This document shows positions 33,985-41,695 of a stretch of 64,000 nucleotides of DNA, piece after piece; within the stretch, counting starts at the first letter, position 1; the number at the start of each line of letters is the position of its first letter. A model generated the notes under the pieces. That model was not told where the DNA came from and did not search any database. It saw nothing but the letters and a program-made list of their open reading frames with translations. This DNA is from Candidatus Uhrbacteria bacterium CG10_big_fil_rev_8_21_14_0_10_48_11 (GTDB lineage Bacteria > Patescibacteriota > Patescibacteriia > GWA2-46-9), in NCBI GenBank assembly GCA_002793855.1, contig PFET01000009.1, positions 21,749 through 85,748 on the forward strand, written 5' to 3'. Position numbers and translations under genes: made by a program.

Positions 33985-35199
33985 TTAGGCTTGCTGAACA
34001 AGATGGTAATTACCTTCTTTGTCTTTCGTAAACATTGTAGAATTGAGAAGCGCCAAATGAATTGTCTGTTTCTTTACCATTCGTCGTTCAAGTACGGCGC
34101 GTACTATCTGCTCTCGCTTCATACTGCCCTCTTTTTGAAGCAACTCACGAACAACATCAACTACGGTACCTGGCTGGTATCCCCACTCTCTAAGCGCGTA
34201 AAGCCCACGGCCAACAAGAACAAACCGTTTGTCTAAAATGAGTTCGTTATGAACCGATGGCGCCTTGGCAACTTTCGAATCAAAATGCATCGAATTAATT
34301 TTTTCGGTAATCACATTAAAATGTAAGGGCTTTCCGTGATGCCGAAGAATTAAATAAATTTTATCATTCATTCGTCGCGGATGAATGGTTTGCCAAGAAC
34401 GCATCCCCCACTCTCCAAAAATATTCTGCGCAAGCTCACCAGCTGCTGATAAATAGGCGGTCAGGACGCGATTTTCTTCCTCGGTAGTTGGTGGGTCATT
34501 TGTACCCGGAGAGCCAATAAACTCTCTTGCAATATGTACTGGTTCAGCCACTAGTTGTTGACGGCGCTCAAGGTAAAAAGGTTGTTGCCGAAAGCGTTGT
34601 AGAAGATCGCCACGCTCTATCGGGTATCCTACCGTTTTTATTGCTTCCACAAACGATTCTACTGCTCCCTTTAGTAATGCTGTATCAACGCCAGTTAAAA
34701 CATAAATTGGGCGAAGACAAACATCGTCTTCCCGGTATTCAACAAAACCATCAAGTAAATGGTCGAGCAAAAAATGTAGGCAGGCTTTTGTCGAAGCTTC
34801 ATGTTTTTCGTCACCGATCCTTCCTTGCGAGTAATCCAGGAGCTGATCTATAAAAAAAACTGCCTCTAACGCGCCTCCGTAACTACGCAACAGGTATTCT
34901 GTTGTTCTGATGAACAACTTTAGCTCCTCGTTCTTTGCGGAGAGCGCCCGCAATTTGTCTACAGAAGATTTAGCAATTTGACGGATACGTTCTCTGGTAA
35001 CCGATAACTGATCTCCAATCTCTTCCAGCGTTTCTGTTTGACCCCCTTCTGGAATTGCAAATCTGCGACGAACAACATCGGCCTCGCGGTCCGCTAGGGT
35101 GCTAAGCAGATGATTCACTACCGCGACAGGGTCAAACGTACGTATTTCTTCTGCGTGTCGCTGGGCAATTAATTTATCTAAAATACTATACTCTGACAT
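33985..35199 (-). CDS. Putative DNA-binding or transcription protein. It has an N-terminal sigma-70 region-4 helix-turn-helix and a C-terminal HARE-HTH-like winged helix.
   Basis: Residues about 35-85 read LADREADVVRRRFAIPEGGQTETLEEIGDQLSVTRERIRQIAKSSVDKLR, matching sigma-70 region 4.2. Residues about 290-360 read IYLILRHHGKPLHFNVITEKI........ILDKRFVLVGRGLYALREWGY, matching the HARE-HTH pattern of RpoE/delta (Pm.f.ei...DgRF..lg.g.WgLr.W). Confidence 0.55.
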   Translation of the reverse strand: MSEYSILDKLIAQRHAEEIRTFDPVAVVNHLLSTLADREADVVRRRFAIPEGGQTETLEEIGDQLSVTRERIRQIAKSSVDKLRALSAKNEELKLFIRTTEYLLRSYGGALEAVFFIDQLLDYSQGRIGDEKHEASTKACLHFLLDHLLDGFVEYREDDVCLRPIYVLTGVDTALLKGAVESFVEAIKTVGYPIERGDLLQRFRQQPFYLERRQQLVAEPVHIAREFIGSPGTNDPPTTEEENRVLTAYLSAAGELAQNIFGEWGMRSWQTIHPRRMNDKIYLILRHHGKPLHFNVITEKINSMHFDSKVAKAPSVHNELILDKRFVLVGRGLYALREWGYQPGTVVDVVRELLQKEGSMKREQIVRAVLERRMVKKQTIHLALLNSTMFTKDKEGNYHLVQQA

Positions 35200-35354: not shown

Positions 35355-36305
35355 TTAGTAACGTGCGATTCGTCGCTTTTCTTTCCAGCTATACCAGCTA
35401 ATCAAAAGTGGCGAAGCTATAAAAATTGAACTGTAGGTACCAACGAAAATACCAATGGTAAGTGCTAGTACGAAATAGTGAATACTTTCTCCACCAAAGA
35501 CCAAAGTAAAAATAAGCACGAGCAATGTCGTAAACGAAGTGTTTATCGATCGACCCATTGTTTCGTTTAAGCTCCGGTTTACAACTCGGGAAAAAGAATC
35601 AGTGGCGCGATGCAAGTTCTCTCTAATACGATCAAATACAACAATGGTATCGTGAACCGAAAATCCAAGTAAGGTCAGTAGTGCAGTAATGAAAAGCACG
35701 TTTACTTCAACACCAAGGTAGTGTCCAAGAATAGAAAAAATACCAACCGTAATAATGGTGTCGTGAAAGAGAGCGATAATGGCCGCCGTTCCAAACTGCC
35801 ATGAGGGTACCGGACGAGAAACCTTTCTGAACGCCCAAGCGATATACAGAATGATTGCCCCCAAAACAGCACTCAATGCAAAAATTGATTTTTGTCGTAG
35901 CTCAGCTCCAATAGTAGGACCGATGGCGGTAAAACGCTCTTCGCTAATACTATCCCCTTTCTCTCCGCCAAATGTTTTCTCTAATGCTGCGAGTAAGGTC
36001 GCGTGATCCTCTTCGCTTAACGCCTTACCTTCTTTGGCGCCTATTCGCAGAGTTGCCCCATTGGTACCAATGGGAGTAATGTCTACGGTTCCAATAGTTT
36101 CTAGTACCGCCGCTGAAATGTCCGCTATCGCTGGACGATTACCAGCAAAGGTAATTTCCATTAACGATCCCCCAGTAAAATCAATACCGTATTTGAGTCC
36201 CCACCCTGGAAGTAAAATAGCCAGCGCGCACAGTAGCACCAAGGTACCCGAAAAGAGGTAGGCAATTCTGCGATAACCAACAATATTTATATTTGTACGT
36301 CTCAT
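35355..36305 (-). CDS. secF: Protein-export membrane protein SecF.
   Basis: It has six TM helices with a SecF periplasmic loop and a 4-nt overlap with secD. Confidence 0.85.
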   Translation of the reverse strand: MRRTNINIVGYRRIAYLFSGTLVLLCALAILLPGWGLKYGIDFTGGSLMEITFAGNRPAIADISAAVLETIGTVDITPIGTNGATLRIGAKEGKALSEEDHATLLAALEKTFGGEKGDSISEERFTAIGPTIGAELRQKSIFALSAVLGAIILYIAWAFRKVSRPVPSWQFGTAAIIALFHDTIITVGIFSILGHYLGVEVNVLFITALLTLLGFSVHDTIVVFDRIRENLHRATDSFSRVVNRSLNETMGRSINTSFTTLLVLIFTLVFGGESIHYFVLALTIGIFVGTYSSIFIASPLLISWYSWKEKRRIARY

Positions 36306-38110
36306 ACTTCGGTCGAATTATTTTTTCGCGCCACGCCATAAAGCCACAGTCGTTTACTTGTACCGTTAGCCACCACAAGCCTTAAGAATGTACGAGTAAC
36401 GATAATCGCGCTAAACATACTTACCAAAATACCAAGAGCGAGCGTCAACGCAAACCCACGAACAACGCTGGTTCCAAACCAGTAAAGAATCGTACAGGTA
36501 AGAAGCGAGGATACATTTGAATCGCGAATGGACGTCCAAGCACGCTGGAAACCAACTTCGATAGCTGATTGTAGCGGCCTTGCCTCAGCAAGCTCTTCCC
36601 TAAGGCGTTCAAAAATAAGCACGTTGGCGTCCACTGCCATACCAATAGAGAGAATAAACCCAGTTACTCCTGCAAGCGTCAACGTTACTGGCCAAAACTT
36701 GAAAAGCGCTAGGGCAATGCTGGCGTACACCAGCAAAGCAAACACCGACAAAAGACCCGGCAAGCGATAGTAAAGAATCATAAACAGTGCAACTAGAAGA
36801 AACCCGATAAACGCCGCTTCTAAACTCTGCTGAACTGCAACGGCGCCAAGCTTAGCCCCGATGGTTTGCTGCGAAACAAGTGCGATTGGTACTGGCAATG
36901 CACCGGCATTCAAACGCTGTGCTAACAGTTTTGCCTCGTCAATAGTGAAGCTTCCAGTAATAACCGCCTCGCCACCAACAATTGCCTGTTGGACTGTTGG
37001 GACACTAATCGGCTGACCATCAAGGAAAATACCAACCGGTTTACCAATATCACGCTGCGTAATTTCTTCAAAAAGTTTCGATCCTTCTGCGTTAAAGCGT
37101 AGCTGCACCTGCGGCTGGTTTGTCTGCTGGGCAAAAACGACCGTTGCTTTATCAAGCTGCTTACCTGATAACTGAGTGTTCTTCCAGCCAGCGTTTGGGT
37201 CATTTGGCAAAAAATCTCGGGCCGACGGAGCACTGATAAGAATATGACGAGCGTGAACCTCTTGAACCCCGTCGCTGTTGGTTCTCTCGTCAAGACGTTG
37301 TATCACATGATGCCCATAAGCGGTTTTGATAGGCGTTTGGGTAATCTGATTTTCTTTGAGTTGGTTAAAGAGTGCGTCACCGAATTCTGCCACAACGCTG
37401 GCTTTCGTGATGTAGTCAAGGTCACCGCCATTGTCTTTCGAGCCGGGATCATCAGAAAGCTCTTTCGCAATTTTTGCAAAATCTTCTCCGGCATTGAGGC
37501 GCTTAATAACCGATTCGGCTTTACGCTTGGCAGCCGCCTGTCCGTCATCAATCTGTTTTTGCTGGGCTGGCGTAATGGTCGGAGCTACCGCATTTTCATC
37601 CTGCTCTTTAAATTCTAGCAATGGCGTCTCACCGATCTGCTTAATGGCATCATCCACGTTCTCTACACCCGCAAGTTCAACCAATACGCGCCACTGGTTC
37701 CCAGAGCGTTCTGTTTGTACCACTGGCTCAGCAACACCAAAGGCGTTCACGCGCCGCTCAATGACGTCACGGACGCCCTCAAGCGCTGAGACCTTATCAC
37801 TGTCAGGAATTTTACTGGTATCCGCGTCATAAAGTAACTGCGTCCCGCCAACAAGATCAAGGCCGAGTCGAAACGGCGTATCGACAAAGTACGGAACGCC
37901 AGCCTTCAATACTCCCCCAACCCAACCCAAACCAGTCGGATACTGCTTAGCACCGAGTTCTGCTAATTTTGGATTTACCGCATCTACCGCCTTATTGTAA
38001 TAAACAGGATAGTTATAAAGTCCCGCAACAATAGTAAGCACGATGATTGCCACGAAGGTCCACCGAACTCGTCCTCGGCGGGTGCGGAAGGTAACGCGTA
38101 CGCCCATCAA
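36302..38110 (-). CDS. secD: Protein-export membrane protein SecD carrying a parvulin-like insertion in the periplasmic P1 region.
   Basis: The SecD N-terminal TM and P1 base (LGLDLVGG) are present, as are the head subdomain (IFLDGQPISVPTVQQAIVGGEAVITGSFTIDEAKLLAQRLNAGALP) and the C-terminal six TM helices. Residues about 175-300 are alignable to parvulin PPIase (see finding). Confidence 0.85.
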   Translation of the reverse strand: MMGVRVTFRTRRGRVRWTFVAIIVLTIVAGLYNYPVYYNKAVDAVNPKLAELGAKQYPTGLGWVGGVLKAGVPYFVDTPFRLGLDLVGGTQLLYDADTSKIPDSDKVSALEGVRDVIERRVNAFGVAEPVVQTERSGNQWRVLVELAGVENVDDAIKQIGETPLLEFKEQDENAVAPTITPAQQKQIDDGQAAAKRKAESVIKRLNAGEDFAKIAKELSDDPGSKDNGGDLDYITKASVVAEFGDALFNQLKENQITQTPIKTAYGHHVIQRLDERTNSDGVQEVHARHILISAPSARDFLPNDPNAGWKNTQLSGKQLDKATVVFAQQTNQPQVQLRFNAEGSKLFEEITQRDIGKPVGIFLDGQPISVPTVQQAIVGGEAVITGSFTIDEAKLLAQRLNAGALPVPIALVSQQTIGAKLGAVAVQQSLEAAFIGFLLVALFMILYYRLPGLLSVFALLVYASIALALFKFWPVTLTLAGVTGFILSIGMAVDANVLIFERLREELAEARPLQSAIEVGFQRAWTSIRDSNVSSLLTCTILYWFGTSVVRGFALTLALGILVSMFSAIIVTRTFLRLVVANGTSKRLWLYGVARKNNSTEV

Positions 38111-38348: not shown

Positions 38349-38812
38349 TTATAGTTCTTCCCTTTCTAGTAGTGAAAAATCAAGAAGCGTCCCCTCTTTG
38401 TCAAAAAGAAAGTCTCCGGTAAATCTTTTCCCTGTAATGAGTAGCGGGTACCGGTGGTGATCATCCGGAAACATTGACCCGTAGGGAATGTTCTCGACGG
38501 TAAACCACTTCGGTTTCATTTCTTCGGTCTCTACTATTTTACCACCATAGGCACCAACTTTAAAACGTGTACTTCGTGAACGAGTTCTCCACTGTTCGTT
38601 GTAAAATTGAGAATGCCAACTTTTTCAATCTGCTGCGCAACGACTCCAGACTCTTCTTCTAGCTCCCTCTTTGCCGCTTCTTCTATGGTCTCTTCTGTTT
38701 CTACCTTGCCACCAAAACCATCCCACTTTCCCGCGCCAAACCTGCGCTTCTTTAAACCAAGTAAGCTGTTTGCGTGCTGATAAACGATACAGAGATTGTA
38801 AAGTTTTTTCAT
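38349..38812 (-). pseudogene. MTH1/MutT-like NUDIX (8-oxo-dGTPase-type) gene interrupted by a 1-nt frameshift in a T-run.
   Basis: The first frame (92 aa) reads LGLKKRRFGAGKWDGFGGKVETEETIEEAAKRELEEESG...HEVHVL. The second frame continues VGAYGGKIVETEEMKPKWFTVENIPYGSMFPDDHHRYPLLITGKRFTGDFLFDKEGTLLDFSL. Together they align along the full length of an MTH1-type NUDIX protein. The break is at cacgTTTTaaag, about 38565. Confidence 0.6.
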
Positions 38813-38895: not shown

Positions 38896-41625
38896 CTACT
38901 TCCCATGACACTTCTTATATTTCTTACCTGAGCCGCATGGACATGGTTCGTTGCGTCCAATTTTTTCTGAACGAATTTGTTGTGTGCTTGTCGTAACATT
39001 TCCGCCTTCCGGAACCGAAACTGCTGGTGTTCGCTCTGACATCGTCTTTGCGGGTGCGGAGAACGTCACATTCTGCCTACCCATCATAGAGGGGGCAACA
39101 TCAACCGCAACACCAACTTTGTAGATGCTGTAAACAACCTGTTTTCGAATGAGGTCGAGGAGATCAGTAAATAACTTAAACGCCTCTCGCTTGTACTCAA
39201 CAAGCGGGTCTCGCTGACCGTAGCTGCGAAGTCCGATTCCTTGGCGCAGATGATCCATCGCTTCGAGGTGTTCAATCCATAGCGTATCAATAGCACGAAG
39301 CAATAATGAACGCTCAGCAAGCAGAAAAACTCGTTGCTCTTGCGGCAGTGCTGCTGCCACATGTTCACGCAAGCGTCCGTACGCTGCTGTAGCGTCATCG
39401 ATTATGCGCGTAATAAGTGCGTCACGTTTCGCTACAAGCGTATGCTCTTCGGCAGTACTTGAAAGTTCTGCAATGGCCGTTTCCACCTCCGTAGATACCG
39501 GATAAATCGTTCTGATTACCTGACTAATTTCTTTACTGTCCCAATCCCCTGTTTCTTCCGCGCGGGTGTGGAAAGCAACCACTGTTTCAATTTCTTCGGT
39601 AATCATTTTCATAATCTCCGGCTCTAACAAATCTTCAGCACTTTCCATACTGGCTTTAAAGTTGTCGAGCACGCGGTGACGTAAACGATAGACCGTTTCT
39701 CGATGCTTATTGATAACGTCGTCGTACTCGACCAAATGTTTTCGAATATCAAAGTTGTGGCCCTCAACCCGTCGCTGTGCTGATTCAAGCGCCTTTGAAA
39801 CCATATTGTTTTCTATTGGCATATCTTCTGGAACGCCTAGTCGCTCCATCATATTCTTGATGCGCTCAGAGCTAAAAATGCGCATCAAGTCATCCTCCAG
39901 TGAAACGTAAAACTGTGAGGATCCGGGGTCACCCTGACGCCCCGAACGTCCACGCAGCTGGTTATCGATACGTCTTGATTCGTGTCGTTCGGTGCCGATA
40001 ACGTGAAGCCCTCCGGCATCAAGCGCCTGCTGGTGCGCCTGCTGCCATGCTGTAAATTCCTCACCGTCCACTGGTTTACCGTCAACCAGTTCTGGTGGCG
40101 GACCGCCAAGAATAATGTCGACACCGCGACCGGCCATATTGGTCGCAAGGGTAACCGCCCCGACACGACCGGCTTCGGCAATGATGCTTGCTTCTCGTTC
40201 ATGGTTTTTAGCGTTTAACATTTGATGCGGCACGCCAGACTCTAATAGCAACTGGCTGAGGCGCTCGTTCTTTTCGATTGAAATAGTACCAATTAAAACC
40301 GGCTGTCCTTTTTCATAACGTTCTTTTACCTCTCGAACGACCGCCAAAAACTTTCCGTGCTCTGTTTTGTAAATGCGGTCAGACAAGTCCTTACGAACCA
40401 TTGGGCGGTTGGTGGGGACAACAACGACTTCTAATTTGTAAATCTTATGGAATTCTTCTGCTTCGGTTTCTGCGGTACCGGTCATACCAGCCAGTTTTTC
40501 GTAGAGCCGGAAGTAGTTCTGGAAGGTGATGGTAGCAAGGGTCTGGCTTTCCCGCTGAATTTTTACGTTTTCTTTTGCTTCTATTGCCTGGTGAAGTCCC
40601 TCGGAGTAGCGTCGCCCCTGCATAAGACGACCGGTAAACTCGTCAACAATAATTACCTCGCCATCTTTTACCACGTAATCACGATCTCGCTTGTAAAGGC
40701 GCTCAGCTTTAAGTGCTTGCTCGATGTGGTGCACCGTTTCCATGCCTCCGGCAGCATAAATATTCTCAACGTTCAGTAGCTTTTCAAGTTTGGCGATACC
40801 GGCCTCGGTCAGCGTAGCCGCGCGCATTTTTTCATCAACGTTATCGTCAACCTCTGGCTCTAGTCGCCTGATAAGCTCGGCAAATTGGTAGTAACGATCG
40901 TTGGACTCTTCCGCTGGAGCAGAAATGATAAGTGGCGTTCTCGCTTCGTCAATAAGAATACTATCGACCTCGTCAACGATAGCATAAGCCAAGTCTCGCT
41001 GTACTCGGTCTTCTACTCGAGACACCATATTGTCCCGTAGGTAATCAAACCCAAATTCGTTGTTAGTGCCGTACGTGATGTCGCAAGCGTATGCCTCTCT
41101 GCGCGTTACAGGGAGCAGTTCTCGAGTCTTAGGATCATAACGGAAAGCAGCATCGTGCTGAATACTGCCAACGGTCATACCCAGCGAATCAAAAACGCCC
41201 CCCATCCACTGGCACTGGAAGCGCGCCAGATAGTCGTTGACGGTAACAAGATGCGCCCCCTTGCCGTTAAGTGCATTGGTGTACAGTGGCGCGGTAGCGG
41301 TAAGCGTTTTTCCTTCACCGGTTTTCATTTCAGCAATAGTGCCGCGATGAAGAATTATTCCCCCCATCAGCTGAACGTCAAACTGCCGCTGGTTCAATGT
41401 TCGCCTTGCCGCTTCACGGACGACAGCAAAAGCTTCTGGCAATAAATCATCTATCGTTTCCCCTTCTTTGAGACGACGGCGAAACGCCTCCGTCTGTTGA
41501 CGAAGCTCTTCGGAACTCAATTTTTGAATCGACTCTTCCCACCCGTTAATGGCTTCAACGGTTTTACGAACGCTTTTTAGCGCCCGCTCGTTTGGGTTAC
41601 CTAACAGACTAGTTAAAAAGCTCAC
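38896..41625 (-). CDS. secA: Preprotein translocase ATPase SecA with a C-terminal zinc-binding motif.
   Basis: The full SecA architecture is present and the C-terminus reads [15 protein letters not shown]. The start is proposed at GTG 41625 ([17 protein letters not shown]...), matching the SecA N-terminus. The ORF track started earlier, at a TTG right after a stop. Confidence 0.9.
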
Positions 41626-41695
41626 GATAGTATGATTACTAAGTAAAGTCCCCGCCGTTTGGCGAGGAAAGCGCAACTACACCTGCACCGCAGTT

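Follow-up and report, generated by a model that had tools for sequence, protein, structure and literature searches.

SurA is a periplasmic chaperone with tandem parvulin domains, an inactive one (P1) and an active one (P2), and PrsA is a foldase that monoderm bacteria anchor in the membrane. It is still being worked out how the Sec translocon passes unfolded proteins on to such folding helpers on the outside, and the present evidence comes from crosslinks, low-resolution electron microscopy (EM) and AlphaFold docking (PpiD with SecD, SurA with the SecDF P1 head, and the dome of Mycoplasma pneumoniae). SecDF is proton-driven: its P1 head swings between a membrane-facing and an upright position, and the cavity of the head contacts precursors exiting SecYEG (PMC5974789). 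PpiD contacts the periplasmic domain of SecD (PMC9643414), and SurA binds the holotranslocon, its parvulin domains touching the SecDF P1 head in all AlphaFold models of a study that combined AlphaFold with EM (PMC9987972). In the genome-reduced Mycoplasma pneumoniae, PrsA-like peptidyl-prolyl isomerase (PPIase) lipoproteins form a dome on SecDF-SecYEG-SecA, and substrate density is seen at the active PPIase domain (bioRxiv 10.1101/2025.04.25.650208; 10.1101/2024.09.05.611430). Export machinery and folding helpers are separate proteins in other bacteria; here we describe a SecD in which they are one polypeptide. It is encoded in a stretch of 64,000 nucleotides (called the window below, whose numbering is used throughout) from contig PFET01000009.1 of Candidatus Uhrbacteria bacterium CG10_big_fil_rev_8_21_14_0_10_48_11, a member of Patescibacteria (the candidate phyla radiation), and it contains a parvulin-type PPIase domain that very probably is complete and circularly permuted.

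The NCBI entry 'protein translocase subunit SecD' of Candidatus Uhrbacteria bacterium CG10_big_fil_rev_8_21_14_0_10 matches the SecD of the window at 100% identity; there the start is set at the ATG at 38107, giving 601 residues. Its parts, in the order in which they are translated, are the following (open reading frame is abbreviated ORF, AlphaFold2 AF2 and transmembrane TM).

36302..38110, minus strand: secD coding sequence, 602 residues counted from the TTG at 38110, stop codon included in the coordinates (ORF list and Pfam).
38012..38080, minus strand: N-terminal TM helix, residues ~11-33 (AF2 helix 11-33; topology per PMC5974789).
37598..37777, minus strand: N-terminal part of the P1 base (SecD_1st, residues 112-171), with the last strand ...PLLEFKEQD (Pfam; AF2 strand at residues 165-170).
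37280..37570, minus strand: parvulin body, residues 181-277, without an N-terminal β1 (Pfam, AF2 and Foldseek).
37232..37264, minus strand: probable displaced β1 (β1'), residues 283-293, QEVHARHILIS (AF2 strand, SurA alignment, de-permutation and conservation).
36890..37186, minus strand: P1 head, residues 309-407, starting at the conserved WKNTxLSGKxL (Pfam SecDF_P1_head).
36338..36844, minus strand: TM helices 2-6, residues 423-591, with the conserved 'GMAVDANVLIFER' motif that includes D494 (AF2 helices).

The segment 37211-37588 of the minus strand translates to VAPTITPAQQ...AKRKAESVIKRLNAGEDFAKIAKELSDDPGSKDNGGDLDYITKASVVAEFGDALFNQLKENQITQTPIKTAYGHHVIQRLDERTNSDGVQEVHARHILISAPSARDF, which corresponds to residues 175-300 of the 602-residue SecD ORF. 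The original prediction had read this very peptide as a parvulin-like segment placed between the P1 base and the P1 head, and the profile searches agree with it. Rotamase_3 (PF13616) matched SecD residues 169-275 with an E-value of 4.6e-24 (85.6 bits, cut-off 22.5), Rotamase (PF00639) matched residues 183-272 with an E-value of 5.7e-19 (69.3 bits, cut-off 21.7), and a phmmer search against the sequences of the PDB returned SurA (E 6e-19), followed by PrsA and small PpiC-type parvulins. We regard it as practically certain that the insert is a real parvulin: a domain of ~120 residues, at residues ~177-296, lying within the connector that joins the P1 base to the P1 head.

The size that had been announced, about 125 extra residues, also holds. 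SecD_1st and the head are separated by 138 residues in the window SecD (compare with 7-42 residues in relatives that have no insert), and in those relatives the P1 head profile likewise begins at position ~18, so that the insert occupies a connector which varies naturally. The limits of the module can be seen in a pair of relatives, P0134, which carries it at residues 137-251, and P0177, which lacks it. These two proteins are ~80% identical on both flanks and differ by a clean insertion or deletion of 116 residues that spans the start of α1 ('LT.EQ') to just past the HILI strand, so that the module boundaries are defined independently. The same comparison points to a recent loss or gain of the cassette.

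We then considered the fold. The order β1-α1-α2-α3-β2-α4-β3-β4 is canonical for parvulins, and the insert departs from it: it starts at α1, β1, the bearer of one of the two catalytic histidines, is absent ahead of α1, and 'EVHARHILIS' comes after β4 instead. In native order the Pfam matches accordingly begin at position 7 of 97 for PF00639 and at position 11 of 116 for PF13616 (28-30 when the insert is scanned alone). In the AF2 model the body consists of a long α1 (181-206), α2 (211-218), β2 (230-234), α4 (241-250), β3 (261-263) and β4 (266-277), and β4 is followed by a turn of 5 residues and then by β1', the two strands forming a hairpin. The predicted local distance difference test score (pLDDT) of the insert is 96-98 within the full-length model; when the insert was modelled alone, the pLDDT was 93.3 and the predicted template modelling score (pTM) 0.85. 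This model has the elements expected of the parvulin fold, which is defined by a four-stranded antiparallel sheet packed by four helices, and Foldseek returned parvulins only at E<0.05 (8hm3, 8hm4, 4g2p, 6vj4, 1m5y and 5htf, of which 6vj4 and 5htf are PrsA and 1m5y is SurA). The PPIase 8hm3/8hm4 gave an E-value of 6e-8 (8hm3_B) and a template modelling score of 0.66, and 4g2p, the P2 domain of SurA, gave a target-normalised template modelling score of 0.76.

In a de-permutation test, residues 279-296 were placed ahead of residues 176-278, with the same segment shuffled as a control. The rearranged insert matched PF00639 from position 1 with 76.6 bits (compare with 73.0 for the native order), and the shuffled control gave 73.5 bits and no extension. 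For PF13616 the match began at position 14 with 95.0 bits (90.3 for the native order), and the control gave 89.1 bits, again without extension. As only the de-permuted order brings the matches to the start of the profiles, the domain is a permuted variant of the parvulin fold and not a canonical member. The original prediction had noticed HARHILIS after the GHH motif and had left open whether the domain was permuted or partial. The order is as described, with H268 in GHH and HARHILIS at residues 286-293; permutation stands, on the strength of the de-permutation test, the AF2 hairpin and a β1' histidine, H289, that is invariant in 69/69 homologues, and partiality does not. It is thus very likely that the insert is a complete, circularly permuted parvulin.

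The alignment with SurA suggests how such an arrangement could have arisen. In the phmmer alignment the insert tracks the body of SurA P1 and then β1 of the second parvulin of SurA, 'VTEVHARHILLK' ('EVHARHILLK'), and, as far as an alignment can tell, this is the signature expected of a tandem duplicate truncated at both ends. The permutation looks as if tandem parvulins had been duplicated and truncated. Relatives of the window SecD nest a canonical catalytic parvulin within an outer unit that is degenerate and has the same permuted register. Two classes were found among 120 close homologues: proteins with one unit, like that of the window (550-658 residues), and proteins with two (655-720 residues). 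The layout of the latter is body 1 (α1 to β4), then a β1 'ASHILIC' with a canonical body 2, then a trailing β1-like strand 'EYxLxRILxKTK'. The middle β1 and body 2 make up a full canonical parvulin (positions 1-94 of the Pfam profile), and the histidines of the middle β1 and of the body-2 β4 are both present (H/H) in 67/71 proteins. The residues at the corresponding places of body-1 β4 and of the trailing strand degenerate jointly (N/R in 19 proteins, S/R in 5, E/R in 4 and H/H in 6); the trailing histidine is found in 6/7 proteins with the body-1 histidine and in 8/53 without it (Fisher p = 4e-4, shared ancestry ignored). The two-unit form is read most simply as a nesting, in which body 1 and the trailing strand together make an outer permuted parvulin and an inner one, canonical and catalytic, is lodged between the β4 and the β1 of that outer unit.

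A pair of cysteines, 'HILIC....(R/N)C', is conserved right behind the middle β1 of the inner parvulin in two-unit homologues (for example P0038, residues ~288-305). It is missing in the one-unit form of the window, and in the two-unit forms it could make an extracytoplasmic disulfide.

Residue conservation was counted over 69 one-unit homologues and, for the wider alignment, over 116 homologues. The four positions of the parvulin hydrogen-bond network, whose codons were checked on the DNA, are listed below.

37448..37450, minus strand: codon of D221, Asp in 69/69 one-unit homologues.
37322..37324, minus strand: codon of T263, Thr in 47/69 and Ser in 22/69.
37307..37309, minus strand: codon of H268, the β4 histidine, invariant in all 116 aligned homologues.
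37244..37246, minus strand: codon of H289, the β1' histidine, His in 69/69 one-unit homologues.

We take D221 to be the equivalent of Pin1 C113 and Par14 D74, H289 that of Pin1 H59 and Par14 H42, H268 that of Pin1 H157 and Par14 H123, and T263 that of Pin1 T152 and Par14 T118; Asp substitutes for the Cys of the tetrad in non-phospho-specific parvulins. S219, G228, G229, F243 and L291 are also found in 69/69 one-unit homologues and I290 in 68/69, and the conserved L231, V240 and F243 presumably form the hydrophobic proline pocket of parvulins. Judged from these alignments, both the D221/H289/H268/T263 tetrad and the proline pocket are conserved in the insert.

The position of the domain in SecD bears on what it may do. 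The TM helix at residues ~11-33 places residues ~35 to ~420 beyond the cytoplasmic membrane, and the parvulin, which lies between TM1 (11-33) and TM2 (from residue 423), is on the outer face of that membrane. Its tethers at the base-head junction are short and hence set it beside the substrate-capturing P1 head. There, next to the swinging head, the parvulin would bind the same unfolded chains as they leave SecYEG and would isomerise their prolyl bonds, or at least hold them, so that a genome-reduced bacterium would gain a translocon with a built-in foldase of the PrsA/PpiD/SurA kind. We give a probability of roughly 0.7 to this reading, in which Sec substrates are folded or held by the domain; that it is catalytically active seems on balance probable. 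The β1/α1 junction borders the substrate cleft in canonical parvulins, and in Pin1 the substrate-binding loop borders the catalytic cleft there. The permutation sets both connections to SecD at this junction, and the cleft therefore likely faces the SecD hinge, although we only infer this.

A bolder version, which we find doubtful, would take the fusion as a 'Rosetta stone' of an interface, general and ancient, at which parvulin chaperones meet the SecDF P1 head, and would see in the module a foldase whose work is coupled to energy. As the P1 head swings, driven by protons, it would feed the chain from its cavity into the isomerase cleft and withdraw it afterwards, and the translocation cycle would set the mechanical timing of isomerisation or holding. 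Nested two-unit relatives, with their degenerate outer scaffold and inner catalytic parvulin, would be elaborations of the same device.

Comparison with the described systems shows what is shared and what is not. The SecDFs of Thermus thermophilus and Deinococcus radiodurans (3AQP, 5XAN, 5XAP and 5YHF) share with the window the RND-type six-helix half-transporter, the P1 base and head, the proton-path Asp and an adjacent SecF; however, these solved structures have no domain between the P1 base and head, where the window SecD has its parvulin. SurA of E. coli (1M5Y) is the best sequence match and pairs a degenerate with an active unit, as do the two-unit SecD relatives, but it is soluble, has the canonical strand order and carries its parvulins within a chaperone core of N- and C-terminal (N/C) parts. 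At E<=1 the window SecD matches no Pfam family of the SurA_N, Rotamase_2-core or trigger-factor-like kinds, and the SecD P1 elements flank the parvulin directly. Without the N/C chaperone core, the SecD parvulin is therefore not a member of the SurA/PrsA/PpiD family, though it plausibly works alike. PrsA of Bacillus and Listeria (4WO7, 6VJ4 and 5HTF) resembles the insert in sequence and fold, is likewise an extracytoplasmic, membrane-tethered, non-phospho-specific parvulin with an Asp at the position of Pin1 C113, and itself acts on Sec substrates; it differs in being a lipoprotein of its own, dimeric, with an NC chaperone domain and the canonical order, whereas here SecD is the anchor and the fold is permuted. 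PpiD-YfgM of E. coli, likewise a chaperone with a parvulin domain and a membrane anchor, sits where chains exit SecYEG and contacts the periplasmic part of SecD (PMC9643414), but it associates non-covalently, its parvulin is catalytically inactive and it has extra chaperone domains. The Mycoplasma pneumoniae dome (Mdp444/436/489) is a further case of a genome-reduced bacterium that physically couples a parvulin foldase to SecDF, and Mdp444 has Arg for the β1 His, like most trailing strands of two-unit SecDs (bioRxiv 10.1101/2025.04.25.650208; 10.1101/2024.09.05.611430), but the dome is a chamber formed by separate large lipoproteins and not a domain fused within SecD. By analogy, the arrangement in the window would be a covalent version of the partnerships of PpiD, SurA and PrsA with SecDF.

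Several points weigh against a foldase acting at the head. PPIase activity and contact with substrates are predicted from residue conservation, and catalytically dead parvulin domains are precedented in chaperones of this kind (PpiD, SurA P1). The copy in the window has minority residues, namely D232 for the Gly of GGDLG (7/69), H267 for Tyr (1/69) and Y265 for Phe (8/69). The geometry between domains is uncertain in the SecD model, the full-length pTM being only 0.68. The module is also dispensable for SecD, being absent from P0177, the relative 80% identical to P0134, and from Azambacteria SecD.

The alternative that survives best is a domain that is folded but catalytically irrelevant, serving as a holdase, as a surface for docking or as a mechanical strut that adjusts how the P1 head swings, in the manner of the inactive parvulins of PpiD and SurA P1. 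The outer unit of two-unit relatives is indeed kept although both of its histidines have been lost (the N/R, S/R and E/R pairs), the single unit that P0145 retains at this site is degenerate throughout, mere low-complexity linkers are tolerated there, and the functional importance of the PpiD parvulin domain has been questioned (PMC9643414). Yet D, H, H and T/S are kept in 69/69 one-unit homologues, although identity over the remainder of the insert has fallen to 37-67%; such conservation is not expected of a strut, and the two-unit forms retain one intact catalytic unit (H/H, 67/71). We therefore judge a purely non-catalytic role unlikely.

Much less credible is a partial remnant, that is, a truncated first domain followed by a stub of the second, with an incomplete fold and carried as a neutral passenger. 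A Pfam match that lacks the N-terminal strand in native order would agree with it, as would the clean loss of the module, which leaves SecD undestroyed. Against this stand the high pLDDT over residues 181-293 (96-98) and the pTM of the insert alone, the invariant His-Ile-Leu on the trailing strand, the match of the de-permuted sequence to full-length profiles, and the retention of the module across Parcubacteria-type and Peregrini/Gracilibacteria lineages. A partial domain was thus rejected in favour of permutation on conservation, the AF2 model, the model of the insert alone and the de-permutation test.

An assembly or annotation artefact, with secD and a PPIase gene fragment joined in a chimera, can be dismissed: the ORF runs through without a break, a tblastn search of the whole window with the insert as query returned the insert itself only and hence no second parvulin from which a neighbouring fragment could have been duplicated, as the original prediction had cautioned, the guanine-cytosine content of the insert (0.48-0.50) equals that of the remaining secD, and the same architecture is found in more than 200 proteins of independent assemblies (NCBI, JGI, ENA and Logan) on contigs of up to 1.4 Mb. 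All of the closest homologues (120/120, 50-81% identity, from the same four sources and on contigs of at most 717 kb) combine PF00639/PF13616 with the SecD domains.

Within Patescibacteria, the SecD-borne parvulin is widespread yet patchy. We scanned 1.84 billion cluster representatives, took the best 150 SecD relatives and could classify 142 of them by the state of the insertion site.

No insert: 67.
One or two parvulin units: 49 (48 representatives and the SecD of the window itself).
Inserts of 335-470 residues, with a canonical parvulin and unannotated flanks: 13.
Other (acidic or Pro/Thr-rich low-complexity linkers, and degenerate parvulins such as P0145): 13.

The base-head connector of SecD is thus a general insertion hotspot. 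The closest cluster without an insert is that of Azambacteria, itself within Patescibacteria. A neighbour-joining tree of the SecD core of the 142 representatives was star-like, with one-unit and two-unit forms intermixed and two main groups bearing parvulins. The register of the two-unit forms was also found in SecDF fusions of ~1000-1100 residues from Peregrinibacteria and Gracilibacteria, and 118/120 homologues of one Peregrinibacteria SecDF carry PF00639.

The inserts of 335-470 residues, as in P0174, P0245, P0193 and others, have one canonical parvulin with more than 100 residues without a Pfam match on each side, and these may represent a whole PrsA/SurA-like chaperone module. In other Patescibacteria SecDs (P0148, P0230, P0192 and P0242), an acidic or Pro/Thr-rich low-complexity linker of 65-185 residues replaces the parvulin.

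The names attached to parvulin-bearing SecDs are those of Uhr-, Falkow-, Buchanan-, Komeili-, Peregrini- and Gracilibacteria, Parcubacteria and the 'Patescibacteria group'. The only labels outside Patescibacteria are Binatia and Eisenbacteria, given by third parties to metagenome-assembled genomes, and we consider both doubtful. When GTDB genomes were scanned with the generic parvulin pattern [VI][KQE][TS]x[FY]GYH[IV]I, SecD fusions made up 5/80 among the matches listed (L001, L005, L007, L028 and L065), and all the named ones are Patescibacteria. The module is conserved across many Patescibacteria. A lineage-specific adaptation, which the original prediction had raised as a question, is hence borne out as far as the names go, and has to be refined into a patchy distribution of one-unit, nested two-unit and larger versions.

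Apart from the insert, the protein has the parts of a SecD. Pfam recognised SecD_1st (residues 112-171), SecDF_P1_head (residues 310-407, E 7.7e-31) and SecD_SecF_C (residues 411-578) in the expected order, and the AF2 model shows the N-terminal TM helix and a five-helix bundle. The full-length AF2 model, built with 116 homologues, has a mean pLDDT of 91.9, and Foldseek matched it to the SecDF crystal structures 5xan, 5xap, 5yhf and 3aqp with E-values of ~1e-25. W309, T312, L314 and G316 of the P1 head are invariant or nearly so in aligned SecD homologues, and D494 and N496 are invariant (D494 in the 116 aligned homologues). D494 is the proton-path aspartate of TM4, the role of the essential Asp being taken from PMC5974789. 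The neighbouring Sec genes are the following.

35355..36305, minus strand: secF, 316 residues (Pfam SecD_SecF_C, E 1.2e-56).
38896..41676, minus strand: secA, 926 residues, upstream of secD on the same strand (assigned by reading SecA motifs and the C-terminal zinc finger in the ORF translation).

The secD stop and the secF start share ATGA (36302-36305), an overlap that suggests translational coupling of both motor subunits. With secF adjoining and D494 invariant, the motor parts of SecD/SecF are intact, and from their order on the DNA secA, secD and secF appear to form one Sec gene cluster. Between secA and secD, a 92-residue ORF at 38534-38812 (minus strand) covers only positions 8-69 of the 134-position NUDIX profile and is probably a truncated NUDIX hydrolase or a pseudogene. 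On the other side, a 404-residue protein at 33985-35199 (minus strand) combines Sigma-70 region 4 in its N-terminal part (residues 31-85) with HARE-HTH (residues 280-339), the DNA-binding module of the delta subunit of Gram-positive RNA polymerase; this pairing in one protein is unusual. Scans of the whole 64-kb window (1-64000) returned no tRNA gene and no Rfam family at the gathering threshold.

Both SecD and parvulins are long-known families, and the Pfam tags that these proteins receive automatically already include both, so that their co-occurrence is visible in databases. A full-text literature search, which left most subscription journals outside its coverage, returned no description of a SecD-parvulin fusion or of a circularly permuted parvulin. 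What appears to be new is a SecD with an integrated and topologically rearranged foldase, its nested-domain relatives and a clean presence/absence polymorphism. The finding is assembled from known parts and rests on computation. A covalent fusion of a parvulin into the P1 arm of SecD, kept across a huge radiation, is independent evolutionary evidence that the partnership between SecDF and parvulins is real and of functional importance, and it is addressed to specialists of the Sec translocon and of chaperones, for whom it offers evolutionary support for this coupling, as well as to researchers in protein evolution. To the former, a single chain of ~600 residues plus SecF offers a compact system for structural study of the coupling between translocation and folding; to the latter, a clear circular permutation and, in relatives, the same fold nested domain in domain, with intermediates extant. 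For the biology of the candidate phyla radiation, the fusion represents one route to extracytoplasmic proteostasis in minimal genomes.

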